Shown in pieces: positions 4,468 through 10,881 of a stretch of DNA of 15,951 nt; within the stretch, counting starts at the first letter, position 1, and each line of letters begins with the position of its first letter. The notes beneath the pieces were generated by a model. It did no database searches, was not told the origin of the DNA, and saw only the letters and a list, made by a program, of their open reading frames with translations. This stretch comes from a virus: the UHGV virus genome UHGV-0230172; one strand, given 5' to 3'. A program made the position numbers and the translations under genes.

Positions 4468-4646
4468 TTCTTCCCACTCCGCCACATCGCATTCAGATAT
4501 TTGTTGTCATTAACAGAACCGAAACTATTTCTCTTAAGCAATTCCTCTCTCGATGGCATTGGCTTTACGCGCTGGCGAATAATCATTTCTGCCGGAAGAA
4601 TGCCGGGATTGTATGCAAGTCCTCTCATGGTAAATTCCTCAGTCAT
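4464..4646 (-). CDS. Hypothetical small protein
   Basis: Start placed at the ATG at 4646 (MTEEF...), just inside the upstream gene's stop; an alternative ATG at 4628 has AGGA 7 nt upstream. Start uncertain. Confidence 0.4.
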
Positions 4647-4935
4647 TACTGATAGCGCCATAGCGTGATCGGTAATTACGCAGGCGCGGGTCGATATATT
4701 CAGGGAATTTGTCTATTGTCGCTTTTCGCAACGGTCTCATTGCTGTTTCGTTTGTTCGGTCCTTCTCATCTTTTAACGCGAGTTGTATATCGCGTCGGTA
4801 CATCCGTTCTGCTTTTGTTTCTGGTGGCAGATCAATAAACGTGTCGAAAATGTTTTTGATATTTTCCAGCACCTCCGCCTTGGAGCTACCGGAGCAATTG
4901 CGCGGGTCATCCGCACCATACTGAGGCGCTGGCAT
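4639..4935 (-). CDS. Hypothetical protein
   Basis: 98 aa; ATG at 4935 preceded by AGGAGA. No family recognised. Confidence 0.55.
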
Positions 4936-4948
4936 GATTTTCTCCTGA

Positions 4949-5428
4949 TTAAATTGCGTGAATAGCGTGACGAGGGAAGGGGAGAGTTACTGGTTCCTCG
5001 TCTGGGTAGATAGGTTTGTTATGTTTGTGCCACTCGACATGACATGACTTGCAGAGCCACATCACATCGGTTGGTTTGCTGTAGTCGCAGTGGTTCGCCT
5101 GTGGTTTACATTCTGATCCGCAGCACTCACATTGTGGTGGTCGGATTAGCTTACCGTCGCGCAAAAAATTACCCACGATGATGTGGGCTTTTCTTTTCCA
5201 TGGGTTGCTCTGAATGAACCGCTTTTTGGCTGCGTTACACCGTTCTCTGCCGCGTTCCGATGATTGATATTCTCTCCTTGCTGATACTCGATGTGGCAAT
5301 CCCGCGCGCTCTTTGTCGTATTCAGCCAGGCAAGCCCGGCAAGCGGCAGTTAATCCATCTCTGGATGCTCTTCTGATTTGAAAGTCCCTTTCTTCCTTCT
5401 GTTGATGGCATCTTGAGCAGATTTTCAT
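4949..5428 (-). CDS. Cys-rich zinc-finger protein with HNH-like C-terminal motif
   Basis: 159 aa; N-terminal CSRC ... CRAC; C-terminal CECCG ... ANHCDY ... WLCKSCHVEWH resembles the HNH zinc-finger nuclease motif. AGGAG 7 nt upstream of the ATG. Confidence 0.55.
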   Translation of the reverse strand: MKICSRCHQQKEERDFQIRRASRDGLTAACRACLAEYDKERAGLPHRVSARREYQSSERGRERCNAAKKRFIQSNPWKRKAHIIVGNFLRDGKLIRPPQCECCGSECKPQANHCDYSKPTDVMWLCKSCHVEWHKHNKPIYPDEEPVTLPFPRHAIHAI

Positions 5429-5437
5429 ATTCAGCTC

Positions 5438-5908
5438 CTAGAACGGAATATCCGAATCGTCGAAGTTCATAGGTGGTTCGCTGTGATTTCCATGCTGCTG
5501 ATGTTGCTGTCTTTGTTGATGACCGTTATTTCGCTGAGGTGAAGACTGTTCATTGCCTCCTTGCTTGCCACCAAGCATTTGCATGGTTCCACCAACGCCT
5601 ACGATAACTTCGGTAGTGAACCTATCCTGTCCGCTTTGATCCTGCCATTTTCTTGTCCGTAATTTGCCTTCAAGATAAACCTCAGAGCCTTTTCGCAGAT
5701 ATTCGCTGGCAATTTCTGCCAGTTTCCCGCTCATTACCACGCGGTGCCACTCCGTCTGCTCCTTTTGCTCTCCAGTTTGCTTATCACGCCATTGTTCTGA
5801 CGTGGCAACTGTAAGGTTTGCAAATGCCGTTCCTGATGGTGAATAGCGCACCTCAGGATCTTGGCCTAATCTACCGATAATGATTACGCGATTAACTCCA
5901 CGTCCCAT
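5438..5908 (-). CDS. ssb: Single-stranded DNA-binding protein
   Basis: [26 protein letters not shown] ... TEWHRVV ... GQDRFTTEV ... GGTMQMLGG and C-terminal DDSDIPF tail closely parallel E. coli SSB. Start set at the ATG at 5908 (GGAGA upstream), not the track's upstream start. Confidence 0.92.
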
Positions 5909-6419
5909 TTTTATTTCTCCTGCGAGTAATCCCTGCCTCAGCATCCTCTTTCCTGTGAAGTGATGCGTGCTCGGATATGGTAAGAAGTTGAAGGTTAGAA
6001 GGGTGGTTATTAAGTTTATTTCTATCTTTGTGGTGTACTTGCTCGTTTGGATTTAATCGCCTTCCAATCAGTGATTCCATGACAATTACATGCTCAGTGC
6101 GACCCTTGTGAGCACCCCGTGTGAATTCCTTATATCCCGCGCTATTTATCCTAAACCCTATGGCAGTTTTATCAGCTTTCATGAGCTTTGCAGCACTTAT
6201 ATTCCTCTTCCACTCTTCGCTAAAGAGTCTTTTCTTCCCTTTATTCTTCCCAAGCCTACCGTCACTTGCAGCCATGCGAACTCCATCAGTTCTATTTCGC
6301 AATACTCCAGCTTTCTTGCACTGATGCCTGACGGTTGATTTTGGAATTCCGGTAATTAAAGAAACCTGAGGAATGCTCATGCCAGAGGCGTAAAGCTCAA
6401 CTGCGCTTCTGCTTGCCAT
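5892..6419 (-). CDS. HNH endonuclease with N-terminal helix-turn-helix region
   Basis: 175 aa; canonical HNH motif [28 protein letters not shown]; sits between the annealing protein and ssb, overlapping the ssb start by 17 nt. Confidence 0.85.
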
Positions 6420-7127
6420 TTATGCCGCCTGTTTTAGCTCGTTAACTCTGATGTTCATTACCTGAACGCATTTAGCCTGCGCCTCCTCGTTGCCAGCCAT
6501 TAATTGCCAGTCACGCTGATAACGCTCGATGAGTTTTTTCTTATCAGTTTCTGTTGACGCATAATCGCTGAAGTCTTTCAGGATTTGCTCGCAGTCAACC
6601 GATGGAGATTTCTGGTTGGTATTTTCTGGTGATGGTTTGTTATCTGATGCTGGTATTGCCCATCCCGGCAGCGATGGAGGGAACCAGTAAAATCCTGTTC
6701 CATCCTTGAGTTTTGCCCTGTGCCATCCCTGCTTTTTATCGAGAGATGTTTGTGCGAAACCTTCCTCAAGGTTATACAGATACCGACCGATTCCCCACTG
6801 AACGGCAGCGCGCTTCATTGCACCGGAACGACCACCTTTGACGGCTTCTACCTGCGTGTTTTCAGCAGCATCCCATTTGGTTACCCATTCGGAATCAATC
6901 TTTATTGATATGCCGCATTCAACGCCGCCGTTGTTGGGAATATCGCGGTATTCATTGCGCCATCCTGCTTTGCCGCAAACATCGTCCAGGCGTTTCATGA
7001 TTGCCCGGTTCGTGACATAAGCCAGCACCATAGCCCACACTTTGCCATCGCGTGTTTTACCGCTTTGCTGTATTCGCCATTCGATATCTTCAGGGCTGAA
7101 TGGCTCATCGAATTTATTCAAATCCAT
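6420..7127 (-). CDS. Single-strand annealing recombinase, Rad52/Sak-like
   Basis: 235 aa; motif GGRSGAMKRAAVQWGIGRYLY resembles the conserved core of Rad52/22-family phage annealing proteins; occupies the position of bet in lambda. Family assignment from memory. Confidence 0.6.
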   Translation of the reverse strand: MDLNKFDEPFSPEDIEWRIQQSGKTRDGKVWAMVLAYVTNRAIMKRLDDVCGKAGWRNEYRDIPNNGGVECGISIKIDSEWVTKWDAAENTQVEAVKGGRSGAMKRAAVQWGIGRYLYNLEEGFAQTSLDKKQGWHRAKLKDGTGFYWFPPSLPGWAIPASDNKPSPENTNQKSPSVDCEQILKDFSDYASTETDKKKLIERYQRDWQLMAGNEEAQAKCVQVMNIRVNELKQAA

Positions 7128-7385: not shown

Positions 7386-7534
7386 TTCCTGCGATACCAT
7401 GGAAGGTTGATAGCTGATTTCATCGCTTTATTTGCTTCAAGCCACATTTTTGAATCACCAATAAATCTGGCTATTACTGCTTTGTTTTGTGCCGCACGAA
7501 GCATCTGGTGATTAATGGCTATTTCATTGCGCAT
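7382..7534 (-). CDS. Kil-like small protein (candidate host division inhibitor)
   Basis: 50 aa, below the track cutoff; start overlaps the cIII stop, as kil does in lambda; contains ARFIGDSKMW, which resembles my memory of lambda Kil. Unverified. Confidence 0.4.
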   Translation of the reverse strand: MRNEIAINHQMLRAAQNKAVIARFIGDSKMWLEANKAMKSAINLPWYRRK

Positions 7535-7653
7535 AACGCCTCCAGTTGTTTCTTTGCTGCTCTGATTAATTGTTTAACACGGCGTGATAATTCAGATTCG
7601 TGCGGGTAGAAAGCGGACATGACGCCGCTACCCGCGAGCTGAAAGTGCATCAT
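7519..7653 (-). CDS. cIII: cIII-like protein (FtsH/HflB inhibitor, lysogeny promoting)
   Basis: Start at the ATG at 7653 (AAGGAG 5 nt upstream): MMHFQLAGSGVMSAFYPHESELSRRVKQLIRAAKKQLEA parallels lambda cIII (AIAGWPVAGCPSESLLERITRKLRDGWKRL). Position after N matches lambda. Confidence 0.65.
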   Translation of the reverse strand: MMHFQLAGSGVMSAFYPHESELSRRVKQLIRAAKKQLEALCAMK

Positions 7654-7716
7654 GGGTAACTCCTTATATTTGATTGCATAACGAAAACGCCTCGAATGAA
7701 GCGTTATTGGTATGCA

Positions 7717-7743
7717 TATAAAAAGGCCCTCACACTGGAGGGC
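7717..7743 (-). terminator. Putative rho-independent terminator within the pL operon
   Basis: Minus strand: GCCCTC-CAGTGT-GAGGGC stem-loop followed by CTTTTTATAT. Confidence 0.45.
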
Positions 7744-7847
7744 AAAGAAGATTTCCAATAATCAGAACAAGTCGGCTCCTGTTTAGTTACGAGCGACATT
7801 GCTCCGTGTATTCACTCGTTGGAATGAATACACAGTGCTTATTTGTA

Positions 7848-8318
7848 CTAATAAAATACCCAATTTTCTGTTTCTTGGTTGTGTCCAAAGTTATATTCAA
7901 TATCTGGTGTTGATGTATCAATATTTTTCATCCCATCAACAAGAGTTGATACAACAGCCAAATCTTGTTTTATTCTCATTAAATGGTATTTCTTCCGGCG
8001 CAATAAACTTTCAATAGCAAGTTTCTTCGTTGGGAATGCAAAAGATCTTTCTGCATTTTTTGCTACTTTCTTAATTGCATATCTATTTCTCCTTTGTTTC
8101 CATTCCTGTAACCACTGATTTGGTGCTGGTTTAAAATTAACAATCCAATGCGCAGGAACCAACCATGCATAATGCTCTGTCTGATGAAAAGCTATATATT
8201 GAAGTGCGAATATTTTTATCCCATCTTCTTCAACTGTCGCCTGGAATCTCCAGAAAACAGGCATTCCATCATGTTCAGTTTCTGATTCAGGAAAAGGTAC
8301 GCTCCATGATTTTGTCAT
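7848..8318 (-). CDS. Hypothetical protein in AT-rich moron downstream of N
   Basis: 156 aa; ATG at 8318 preceded by GAGGTGAGAT; region visibly AT-rich relative to flanks; no family recognised. Confidence 0.55.
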   Translation of the reverse strand: MTKSWSVPFPESETEHDGMPVFWRFQATVEEDGIKIFALQYIAFHQTEHYAWLVPAHWIVNFKPAPNQWLQEWKQRRNRYAIKKVAKNAERSFAFPTKKLAIESLLRRKKYHLMRIKQDLAVVSTLVDGMKNIDTSTPDIEYNFGHNQETENWVFY

Positions 8319-8372
8319 ATCTCACCTCAAATAAGTGGTTTGCTGCGAAAGTAAATACGCTTAAGTTACCTG

Positions 8373-8510
8373 TTATTTATCCCACCAAGTTCCGTATCTA
8401 TCTATCCAGTTACACCAATCATCGACACTCCATTTTGTTGTGTCGCATTTTGGCAATTGGCATGAATATCTACCTTCTTTGTAAAGTCGGAGTTTGACTT
8501 TCTTGAGCAT
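8373..8510 (-). CDS. Small Cys-containing ORF (45 aa), hypothetical
   Basis: Below the track cutoff; ATG at 8510 just downstream of the N stop with GAGGTGG upstream; three Cys (MLKKVKLRLYKEGRYSCQLPKCDTTKWSVDDWCNWIDRYGTWWDK). Confidence 0.3.
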   Translation of the reverse strand: MLKKVKLRLYKEGRYSCQLPKCDTTKWSVDDWCNWIDRYGTWWDK

Positions 8511-8517
8511 GGCCACC

Positions 8518-8850
8518 TCAATCGTAATAAGCTGGAATTGATTTTCCGCGTTGCTTCTGGCGGCCTGAACAGGTCACACCCATTTCACTGCGTGGCTTGC
8601 TGTACCATGTGCGCTGATTCTTGCGCTCAATACGCTGCAGGTTGCTTTCAATCTGCTCGTGGTATTCAGCCAGCACCGTAAGGTCTATCGGATTCAGTGC
8701 GCTTTCTACTCGTGATTTCGGTTTGCGATTCAGCGAGAGAATAGGGCGGTTAACTGGCTTTGCGCTTACCCCAACCAACAGGGGATTTGCTGCTTTCCAT
8801 TGAGCCTGTTTCTCTGCGCGACGTTCGCGGCGGCGTGTTTGTGCATCCAT
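8518..8850 (-). CDS. N: Antitermination protein N
   Basis: From the ATG at 8850: MDAQTRRRERRAEKQAQWKAANPLLVGVSAKPVNRPILSLNRKPKSRVESALNPIDLTVLAEYH..., essentially lambda N including the arginine-rich motif; the C-terminal few residues differ. Confidence 0.93.
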   Translation of the reverse strand: MDAQTRRRERRAEKQAQWKAANPLLVGVSAKPVNRPILSLNRKPKSRVESALNPIDLTVLAEYHEQIESNLQRIERKNQRTWYSKPRSEMGVTCSGRQKQRGKSIPAYYD

Positions 8851-8960
8851 CTGGATTCTCCTGTCAGTTAGCTTTGAGTAACGCGCCGTGATGCTTATCT
8901 CCACGGTTGCTGTCTTGCAGCTGCATTTCGCGCTACTCAAAGCCTTCTGCTTTGAATGCT

Positions 8961-8991
8961 GCCCTTCTTCAGGGCTTAATTTTTAAGAGCG
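8961..8991 (-). promoter_or_regulatory. nutL (boxB hairpin and boxA)
   Basis: Minus strand reads CGCTCTTA (boxA, plus 8984..8991) then GCCCTGAAGAAGGGC (boxB, plus 8961..8975), matching lambda nutL. Confidence 0.85.
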
Positions 8992-9030
8992 TCACCTTCA
9001 TGGCGGTTAGTGCGTCCTGCTGATGTGCTT

Positions 9031-9093
9031 AGTATCACCGCTAGTGGTATTTGTGTCAACACCGCCAGAGATAATTTATCACCGCAGATGGTT
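9031..9093 (-). promoter_or_regulatory. pL promoter with operators oL1-oL3
   Basis: Minus-strand TTGACA (plus 9054..9059), 17-bp spacer, GATACT (plus 9031..9036); 17-bp operators TATCACCGCTAGTGGTA (9033..9049), CAACACCGCCAGAGATA (9057..9073) and TATCACCGCAGATGGTT (9077..9093), each matching lambda oL sites with at most one change. Confidence 0.88.
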
Positions 9094-9248
9094 ATCTGTA
9101 TGTTTTTTATATAGATTTATTTTTTGCAGAGTTGTGTGGCTTGGGAGGTGATCGAGAGATCAGAATTGCGTTGTTTAGTGAGTTGCACCTATTAATTTTA
9201 AAATAAATACAATTGGTTATGTGTTTTTAGGTGGGGCGATCGTGAGGC

Positions 9249-9274
9249 AAAGAAAACCCGGCGCGGAAGCCGGG
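9249..9274 (-). terminator. Putative rho-independent terminator after the rex-slot ORF
   Basis: Minus strand: CCCGGC-TTCCGC-GCCGGG followed by TTTTCTTTG, immediately downstream of the 9280 stop. Confidence 0.5.
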
Positions 9275-9279
9275 TTGTC

Positions 9280-9813
9280 TCATTTTTTAGTTTGCTTTGG
9301 ATTCGGTTTGTCTCTTCTTCCAATTATAAACACGCTAGTTAAAGCAACTAACTCAGCACCAAGAAGCCCGGTAGCCCAGCCATAAGCCTCGTGCTGAATC
9401 ATCTTGTAAGCAATTCCTGCGAAAACAAAGACAGAAGTCATCGCAAAGATCTGTCCGAGTCGATCTCGCCAAATTGCTCCCCTCTGTCCTGCTTTGTAAT
9501 ACTCGTGTCTGTGTTTTTGCTCAGCCTTAGCCATGTCCATTATTTCGCGAGCGAATCCTGGAGATATTCTTTCGTACTTAGCTAATTCGTCAGCGTCTGG
9601 GAGTGGCCCTGATCTAGTGTGAGTCACCTGCATCATGATGCCAGCTAGATCTGGCCTGTCCATGAGGCGCTCAAGAACTTGAGGGTTCTTTGCGACCTCA
9701 TTTATAAGCAGTTCGGTTTTACCGTCTTGAACTCGCCCTAACGGAGTTGGTTGGTTAACAAGATTTCTCGGGGCGGCGGTTTGAAGCTTTCTTTGGGATT
9801 TTTTTCTGCTCAT
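9280..9813 (-). CDS. Hypothetical membrane protein with two C-terminal transmembrane helices (possibly DUF2335-type), in the rexAB slot
   Basis: 177 aa; soluble N-terminal part with ISPGFAREIMDMAKAEQKHRHEY, then two hydrophobic helices (IFAMTSVFVFAGIAYKMI and WATGLLGAELVALTSVFIIG). No clear SD at the 9813 ATG; next in-frame ATG is 50 codons downstream. Confidence 0.6.
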   Translation of the reverse strand: MSRKKSQRKLQTAAPRNLVNQPTPLGRVQDGKTELLINEVAKNPQVLERLMDRPDLAGIMMQVTHTRSGPLPDADELAKYERISPGFAREIMDMAKAEQKHRHEYYKAGQRGAIWRDRLGQIFAMTSVFVFAGIAYKMIQHEAYGWATGLLGAELVALTSVFIIGRRDKPNPKQTKK

Positions 9814-9976
9814 TATCAGTTACAGCGTCTCTAACGTAACTACCTACCTTAACCCAATCTGAGTTGATAAGGTCGATGTCTGTAGCATTTGAATGATACT
9901 CGCTGTAGCTACCTGCTGGGCAAAGGTCAAGGATAGAGCCCATAGCGCTGAAAAAGTGCTTTGCAGATTTTTTCAT
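9755..9976 (-). CDS. Small hypothetical ORF (73 aa) upstream of the membrane protein
   Basis: Overlaps the membrane-protein ORF start by 59 nt in another frame; weak SD (AGGA, 9-nt spacer). May be a real partner gene or spurious. Confidence 0.3.
   Translation of the reverse strand: MKKSAKHFFSAMGSILDLCPAGSYSEYHSNATDIDLINSDWVKVGSYVRDAVTDNEQKKIPKKASNRRPEKSC

Positions 9977-10164: not shown

Positions 10165-10881
<717 letters not shown>

Follow-up and report, generated by a model that had tools for sequence, protein, structure and literature searches.

In phage lambda, the interval between the early genes N and cIII carries sieB, orf28, ral, and ea10, according to the lambda record, and sieB is found in the same interval in both lambda and P22 (PMC8022706). 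The DNA analyzed here, a 15,951-nucleotide stretch of virus genome UHGV-0230172 that we refer to as the window, comprises the early and immunity region of a lambdoid prophage, with its leftward genes on the minus strand, and in the corresponding interval it holds an AT-rich block with two small open reading frames (ORFs). One encodes the 156-residue protein known as gp45 in HK97 and L0079 in 933W (gp45 in this report), and the other encodes a 45-residue protein of the DUF5484 family, to which gp55.4 of T4 and RB69 belongs. Both genes entered the databases decades ago as "hypothetical" (HK97 in 2000, 933W in 1999); they represent catalogued but functionally uncharacterized families, and the locus is an ordinary one, already known and sequenced. 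Our comparisons indicate that the block very probably consists of two accessory-gene cassettes, each exchangeable independently of the other, in the initial part of the leftward early (pL) operon, and we regard this anatomy as a whole as secure.

The closest described counterparts differ from the window in informative ways. The HK97 and 933W versions encode the same protein (99.4-100% identity), of the same length and in the same place downstream of N, followed by the same hairpin and terminator; however, HK97, H-19B, and 933W have other types of N directly upstream of the gene, whereas the window has a lambda-type N and then the DUF5484 cassette. Lambda Ral belongs to the identical genomic slot, in that orf28 and a 66-residue Ral stand between the same linker and the same hairpin and terminator in sister prophages, and both Ral and gp45 are small, soluble, early pL products (presumptively so in the case of gp45). 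The two proteins are nonetheless dissimilar in sequence (BLASTP against the 66-residue Ral of the same slot, E = 24) and in length, and no Ral-type profile was matched by either ORF in Pfam and NCBIfam scans with E values up to 1. In lambda the terminator tL1 lies between N and ral, so that ral needs N, whereas no such terminator was found by our scan of the window. SieB of lambda and P22 shares the N-to-cIII interval but has no similarity to the window proteins (BLASTP of gp45 against lambda SieB, E = 0.21 over 14 residues), which contain no hydrophobic segment and for which no promoter of their own was found. The T-even copy of gp55.4 is encoded in the 55.1-55.8 cluster beside gene 55 and nrdH, in contrast to the lambdoid pL operon of the window copy, and for T4 gp55.4, too, no function was found in the literature. 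We note that the RefSeq lambda record (NC_001416; L037) annotates SieB at 34482-35036, "Predicted by GeneMark," on the strand opposite the pL operon, which looks odd for a gene usually placed in the leftward early region.

The initial annotation had singled out positions 7759-8517 as an AT-rich block with two minus-strand ORFs of 156 and 45 codons, and this description held. The G+C content of the block is 37.3%, compared to 46.1% for the whole window, which places it in the lowest 1% of all 759-nucleotide windows (the minimum is at 7743). The 156-codon ORF has 35.2% G+C, and its G+C fraction at third codon positions is 0.255, compared to 0.45 to 0.54 for N, cIII, and cI. Neither ORF had been assignable to a family, and here the profile searches gave a different answer. 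Residues 1-156 of gp45 align with positions 1-156 of the 156-position profile phrog_1636 (E = 2.7e-112), and the protein is 100% identical to 933W L0079 and to homologs in Min27, BP-4795, Stx2-86, and many Stx1a and Stx2a phages and 99.4% identical to HK97 gp45. The gene occurs in 598 of 5,426 complete Escherichia coli genomes, with up to four copies per genome, and homologs with 55-85% identity are present in prophages of other Enterobacterales (Pectobacterium, Brenneria, Cronobacter, and Rosenbergiella). It has a good Shine-Dalgarno sequence, and the differences among near-identical loci are mainly synonymous (10 synonymous and 0 nonsynonymous relative to Bas106), with a ratio of nonsynonymous to synonymous polymorphism (pN/pS) of about 0-0.1.

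The 45-residue protein scores 41.9 bits against DUF5484 (gathering cutoff, 27 bits) over model positions 3-41 of 43 and matches phrog_1871 with an E value of 8.9e-22; DUF5484 was the sole match for the two proteins in Pfam, NCBIfam, and PADLOC scans (E values up to 1 for Pfam and NCBIfam). The program-made ORF list begins this ORF at a GTG at 8516, and in this longer form the PHROG match sets in at residue 3. A start at the ATG at 8510 fits, since it agrees with the family profiles and has a GAGGTG Shine-Dalgarno sequence; this ATG lies 7 nucleotides past the N stop codon, which the Shine-Dalgarno sequence overlaps. Over its full length the protein is 41-51% identical to gp55.4 of RB69 (51%) and other T-even-like phages, with 14 invariant positions, and a tblastn search with it matched 937 phage records, mostly T-even-like. 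The cassette is present in 145 of the 5,426 E. coli genomes, and the ORF was intact in all five further loci that we translated. We take both minus-strand ORFs to be real genes maintained by purifying selection, because changes in gp45 are mostly synonymous and homologs exist in other Enterobacterales, and because the small ORF is intact elsewhere and resembles gp55.4. No homology to a structural or housekeeping protein emerged for either one, and there was no sign of a gene on the plus strand, where the ORFs within the block had no PHROG match.

The DUF5484 ORF is not annotated by RefSeq/PGAP (Prokaryotic Genome Annotation Pipeline) in any E. coli record inspected, including all 12 of the rows listed, which leaves a gap of about 200 nucleotides between N and the next gene (L003, L025-L027, L032, and hits H131-H142). 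The initial annotation had drawn attention to cysteine in the 45-residue protein; three cysteines are indeed there, but they are absent from the T-even homologs and not conserved in the family, and a zinc or other metal site was rejected on that ground. In Bas106 (L002; 3634-3798), a 20-nucleotide deletion removes the DUF5484 stop codon, and the ORF runs on into the N 3' remnant described below, ends in ...SKPLI after 54 residues, and stops a few bases before the gp45 start codon.

The boundaries of the gp45 cassette became visible when the flanks (7600-7745 plus 8518-8700) were joined and used as a query. The search retrieved E. coli prophages in which these flanks enclose a shorter insert, and the comparison across related prophages proposed with the initial annotation shows a swap of cargo at fixed flanks. 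Exactly 7839-8315, i.e., the gp45 ORF minus its ATG, is replaced in these sister prophages, and every cargo begins at the same ATG behind the same 31-nucleotide linker. One alternative cargo consists of a 28-residue acidic ORF (orf28) and a full-length 66-residue Ral (strain I3 and others), a second of DUF7167 and DUF7446, and a third of an 83-residue acidic protein; "antirestriction Ral family protein" is annotated in 11 of the 20 best rows of the joined-flank search, and L006 and L032-L036 have other cargo or none. On the left, homology to the prophages with other cargo restarts exactly at 7838, the outer edge of a hairpin. In HK97, H-19B, and 933W, which have three different N genes, the sequence from 7716 or 7720 to 8346 is shared with the window. 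The cassette at 7839-8315 (cassette B) is thus a bare ORF between a fixed linker and a fixed downstream hairpin and terminator, and gp45 as a positional allele of ral that has been swapped at base-precise boundaries. The placement of the block in the ral/sieB position, as originally proposed, is therefore well founded, because same-flank prophages carry full-length Ral where gp45 sits. A second point of cargo insertion lies at 7716-7720, right after the T run of the terminator, and holds a homolog of P22 gene 17 in H-19B, ea10/ssb in 933W and lambda, a DUF2528 protein in strain 167, and a 78-residue protein in LD67-1.

The other cassette adjoins the 3' end of N. The C terminus of N in the window (8518-8604, minus strand) is a variant one, and its tail, ...QRGKSIPAYYD, goes together with the DUF5484 cassette; elsewhere the tail reads ...KGKSIPLI or ...LGSKPLI, and homology to the N genes that have no cassette ends at 8555. 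The same tail and cassette are also found behind a different, unrelated N body in strain SC407 (L026). Between the cassette and gp45 lies the 31-nucleotide linker, GCAGCAAACCACTTATTTGAGGTGAGATATG, which contains an N 3' remnant (...SKPLI and a stop), a Shine-Dalgarno sequence, and the cargo ATG, and which is 97-100% identical in L033, L035, and L036 despite their different cargo. Because this linker is the actual 3' end of N in L033, cassette A (approximately 8347-8554) is a replacement N tail together with the DUF5484 gene, inserted upstream of the remnant of an older N end, which survives untranslated in the window. Relative to lambda, it occupies roughly the place of sieB.

The region downstream of gp45 is dominated by RNA structure. 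Two terminator-like hairpins precede cIII, and upstream of them are two stem-loops (7764-7838) without a T run, which were rejected as terminators. The RNA of 7670-7860 (minus strand) folds with -62.8 kcal/mol (z = -5.9), and none of 200 shuffled sequences was as stable; no Rfam family was found in this stretch at gathering thresholds, and a local scan gave only noise with E values above 2. The stem-loops correspond to lambda 33971-34045 and are conserved between ral and ea10, at the recombination boundary of the slot; they could possibly be an RNase III or mRNA-stability element or a recombination linker. The hairpin at 7717-7743, originally considered to close the AT-rich block, is a terminator indeed, and the HK97 record annotates a putative terminator at its position. 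It does not belong to the cargo, however: 7716-7838 is 97.6% identical to lambda 33923-34045, between ral and ea10, and is kept at 97-98% identity in lambda and in prophages with other cargo, and for this reason the terminator is best described as conserved backbone. On the lambda map we take it to correspond to tL2a and the hairpin at 7686-7705 to lie near tL2b. A 31-codon ORF (7704-7799, minus strand; MSLVTKQEPTCSDYWKSSLPSSVRAFLYAYQ) spans the hairpins and terminator and is uninterrupted in every related locus. It matches no PHROG family, and conservation of the RNA elements is probably the sole reason for its persistence.

A consensus scan of the minus strand from pL to 7743 showed no other sigma-70-like promoter and no terminator-like site, and the window lacks a counterpart of the lambda segment between N and orf28 that contains tL1. 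Since nothing promoter- or terminator-like intervenes, both ORFs should be made with N from the first pL transcript, within the first minutes of infection or induction; they should be silent in a CI-repressed lysogen, and they are probably expressed without the need for N antitermination. The very early pL expression originally suggested for the block is consistent with this arrangement. The label "moron" originally applied to the block fits in part. By the definition of morons for HK97 and HK022 that is said to go back to Juhala and colleagues in 2000, the likeness lies in genes of deviant composition between conserved genes, followed by a terminator, and the presence or absence of the genes among collinear relatives agrees as well; what does not fit is that no promoter of their own was found and that the terminator is not their own. 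With no detectable promoter and a backbone terminator, the cargo is better labeled a bare ORF that is swapped between fixed flanks, in the position of lambda orf28-ral.

The gp45 protein is predicted to be soluble (grand average of hydropathy, -0.59; isoelectric point, 9.1), with no transmembrane segment; the maximum Kyte-Doolittle hydropathy over 19 residues is 0.56, and for the small protein it is -0.61. Its positive charge is centered at residues ~74-120, with 16 lysines or arginines versus 4 acidic residues, and R79, K84, K87, R91, R107, K109, and R115 are invariant in the close family. Among 1.8 billion representative proteins, a profile search identified 86 relatives, nearly all of 130-160 residues. 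An alignment of 54 distant relatives (A2), deeper than our alignment A1, gave an AlphaFold2 model with a mean predicted local distance difference test score (pLDDT) of 93.6 and a predicted template modeling score of 0.80; the model from the shallow alignment A1 was poor (pLDDT of 56) and was discarded. The predicted fold consists of three long beta-strands, short helices, a fourth strand, a 33-residue helix, and a conserved C-terminal tail, with the basic center on a helix packed against the beta-sheet. It matched no solved structure, but it did match 13 "uncharacterized" proteins of diverse phages, including Erwinia phage phiEa2809, Achromobacter phage phiAxp-3, Delftia phage RG-2014, and phages of Rhizobium, Cellulophaga, and Tenacibaculum. 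Sequence searches of the PDB with single sequences and with the A2 profile gave chance matches only, a profile search of 5.8 billion proteins gave hypothetical proteins only and no domain fusions, and among the 54 distant relatives the Pfam scan returned nothing meaningful and the PHROG scan only families of unknown function. Two candidate relatives, P0062 and P0080, were dismissed as low-complexity artifacts. The distant relatives are encoded among arrays of small early-operon genes, frequently at the head of the operon or close to it, and several have orphan DNA methylases, recombination genes, or integrases a few genes away.

For the function of the two proteins we tentatively favor a host-directed role in the lytic cycle, as counter-defense or takeover, and consider the chance of it to be somewhat short of even. 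Both would be dispensable lytic-cycle factors aimed at the host, serving either counter-defense, e.g., restriction alleviation as with Ral, or host takeover; gp45 would be small and soluble, with a nucleic acid or an acidic host protein as its binding partner, and the 45-residue protein would be a small binder comparable to other early mini-proteins of T4. Several observations argue for such a role: the cargo is replaced freely and is thus not core, Ral is the best-known occupant of the exact slot, nothing points to expression from the repressed prophage, neither protein is membrane-like, and both families also occur outside temperate lambdoid phages. Relatives are found in T-even-like phages (DUF5484) and in Erwinia phiEa2809, Achromobacter phiAxp-3, Delftia RG-2014, and Pantoea LIET2 and Nafs113 (gp45); most of these nonlambdoid phages are virulent, and this distribution argues against a lysogen-only role. 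Several points weigh on the other side. No literature was found on the function of HK97 gp45/L0079, of DUF5484/gp55.4, or of the N-to-cIII slot, and neither protein resembles known anti-restriction or defense proteins by sequence, profile, or fold: there is no similarity to Ral, SieB, or P22 gp17, and PADLOC-DB v2 gave only noise for gp45 (Cas1_II, E = 0.018, 12.4 bits) and nothing for the small ORF. Guilt by position is weak, as the interval in lambda also holds sieB and ea10; the basic patch would suit a regulatory role in DNA or RNA binding just as well; and the promoter and terminator scans, being based on consensus patterns, are blind to Rho-dependent terminators and to weak or noncanonical promoters. 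Judged from position, an anti-restriction or counter-defense role of the locus is plausible, but anti-restriction specifically is unlikely. The most far-reaching version, in which gp45/L0079 would be a new kind of immediate-early counter-defense protein with an unsolved fold, doing the job of Ral or blocking other host immunity, and the gp55.4-like mini-protein would be a second host-directed effector common to T-even and lambdoid phages, is speculative, and we lean against it.

The same observations bear on other explanations. The strongly and conservedly basic center of gp45 would also suit a nucleic-acid-binding factor for the early program of the phage itself, acting in pL transcript stability or processing, in recombination, or in the lysis-lysogeny decision; the highly structured RNA immediately downstream of the gene, the relatives beside recombination and replication genes, and the association with four types of N (HK97, H-19B, 933W, and lambda) all point in this direction, but a role of this kind seems doubtful to us. 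An exclusion or abortive-infection function benefiting the prophage, in which gp45, the 45-residue protein, or both would be expressed in the lysogen and block superinfecting phages, has a precedent in sieB, found in this interval of lambda and P22 (PMC8022706). AT-rich accessory genes of prophages are often defense genes, and a homolog of P22 gene 17 adjoins gp45 in H-19B. SieB, however, is a membrane protein, and neither window protein has a transmembrane segment, similarity to SieB, or a PADLOC match; the only promoter-like site upstream on the minus strand is the CI-repressed pL, and with both families also present outside temperate lambdoid phages we find exclusion quite improbable. For the small gene alone, it might be that the ORF is nonfunctional in lambdoid phages, a hitchhiking remnant of a recombination joint that is open by chance. 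The lack of PGAP calls in the inspected E. coli records would agree with this, as would the 0-4 synonymous versus 1-3 nonsynonymous changes among lambdoid copies, which show no clear bias, and the location of the cassette where the 3' end of N is duplicated, which is indicative of illegitimate or short-homology recombination. Against this stand a Pfam score above the cutoff, about 50% identity to T-even-like gp55.4 with its invariant positions, a canonical Shine-Dalgarno sequence and ATG, and an intact frame in every further locus, all of which make a chance ORF very improbable.

What the present analysis adds to the existing records is the allelic relation to ral, the probable coexpression with N ahead of antitermination, the frequency in Shiga toxin (Stx) phages, and a predicted fold with no solved counterpart. 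If the most far-reaching version given above is true, gp45 would do this work in roughly 11% of the complete E. coli genomes, with 933W and many other Stx1- and Stx2-converting phages among its carriers. Its ral-allele position, probable coexpression with N, commonness in Stx phages, and confidently predicted fold make gp45 a cheap, well-defined candidate for anti-defense screens, and a survey of the fixed-flank slot in E. coli prophages could turn up further early effectors.

The features of the block and its surroundings are listed in Table 1. Upstream of N, 8938-9129 is 96% identical to lambda 35496-35687, a segment that spans nutL and oL1-oL3.

Table 1. Features of the N-to-cIII interval and its flanks, in order of position in the window
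Feature	Position	Strand	Evidence or correspondence
cIII, HK022/HK97 type, first gene past the terminators	7519-7656	minus	Pfam cIII, E = 2.2e-30
Second terminator-like hairpin, upstream of cIII	7686-7705	minus	Scan; 7677-7715 matches lambda 33483-33522
Intrinsic terminator GCCCTC-CAGTGT-GAGGGC (stem, 7726-7743), followed by T run CTTTTTAT	7717-7743	minus	Terminator scan; corresponds to lambda 33933-33950
Second stem-loop of the structured 3' region	7764-7805	minus	RNA fold
Strong hairpin with 12 perfect base pairs (7806-7833) within 17-nucleotide arms, just past the cargo stop codon	7801-7838	minus	RNA fold
156-residue basic, soluble alpha/beta protein (predicted), HK97 gp45/933W L0079, phrog_1636; exchangeable cargo	7848-8318	minus	PHROG profile
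Conserved 31-nucleotide linker (N 3' remnant, Shine-Dalgarno sequence, cargo ATG)	8316-8346	minus	Locus comparison
45-residue basic, Trp-rich protein, DUF5484 (PF17583)/phrog_1871, T4/RB69 gp55.4 family	8373-8510	minus	Pfam and PHROG profiles
Antiterminator N, lambda type	8518-8850	minus	Pfam N36, E = 1.6e-26
nutL boxB hairpin, minus-strand GCCCTGAAGAAGGGC	8961-8975	minus	Hairpin scan; corresponds to Nutl annotated in lambda 35518-35534
pL promoter, TTGACA-17-GATACT	9031-9059	minus	Consensus scan
DUF2335 membrane protein, rexAB position	9280-9813	minus	
cI, lambda type	10165-10878	minus	

Downstream of cI, in the position of rexA-rexB (9280-9976, minus strand), the 177-residue DUF2335 membrane protein matches phrog_3996, of the category "moron / host takeover"; a 73-residue ORF overlaps the start of its gene, and a bidirectional terminator-like hairpin (9255-9276) follows it. 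This region is plausibly a prophage-expressed accessory or defense cassette.

Leftward of cIII, the minus strand carries kil and genes for an Erf-like annealing protein, an HNH endonuclease, a single-stranded DNA-binding protein (SSB), and Abc2. A 159-residue protein encoded at 4949-5428 (minus strand) matches the endonuclease family phrog_2340 (E = 3e-46), and its N-terminal 68 residues weakly match phrog_5558, "Lar-like restriction alleviation protein" (E = 6.7e-07); the operon may thus include a further anti-restriction-type function, adjoining Abc2 (4639-4935). The HNH endonuclease gene (5892-6419, minus strand) lies between the genes for the Erf-like protein (6420-7127) and SSB (5438-5944), overlaps the SSB ORF as listed, and may be a mobile homing-type insertion.
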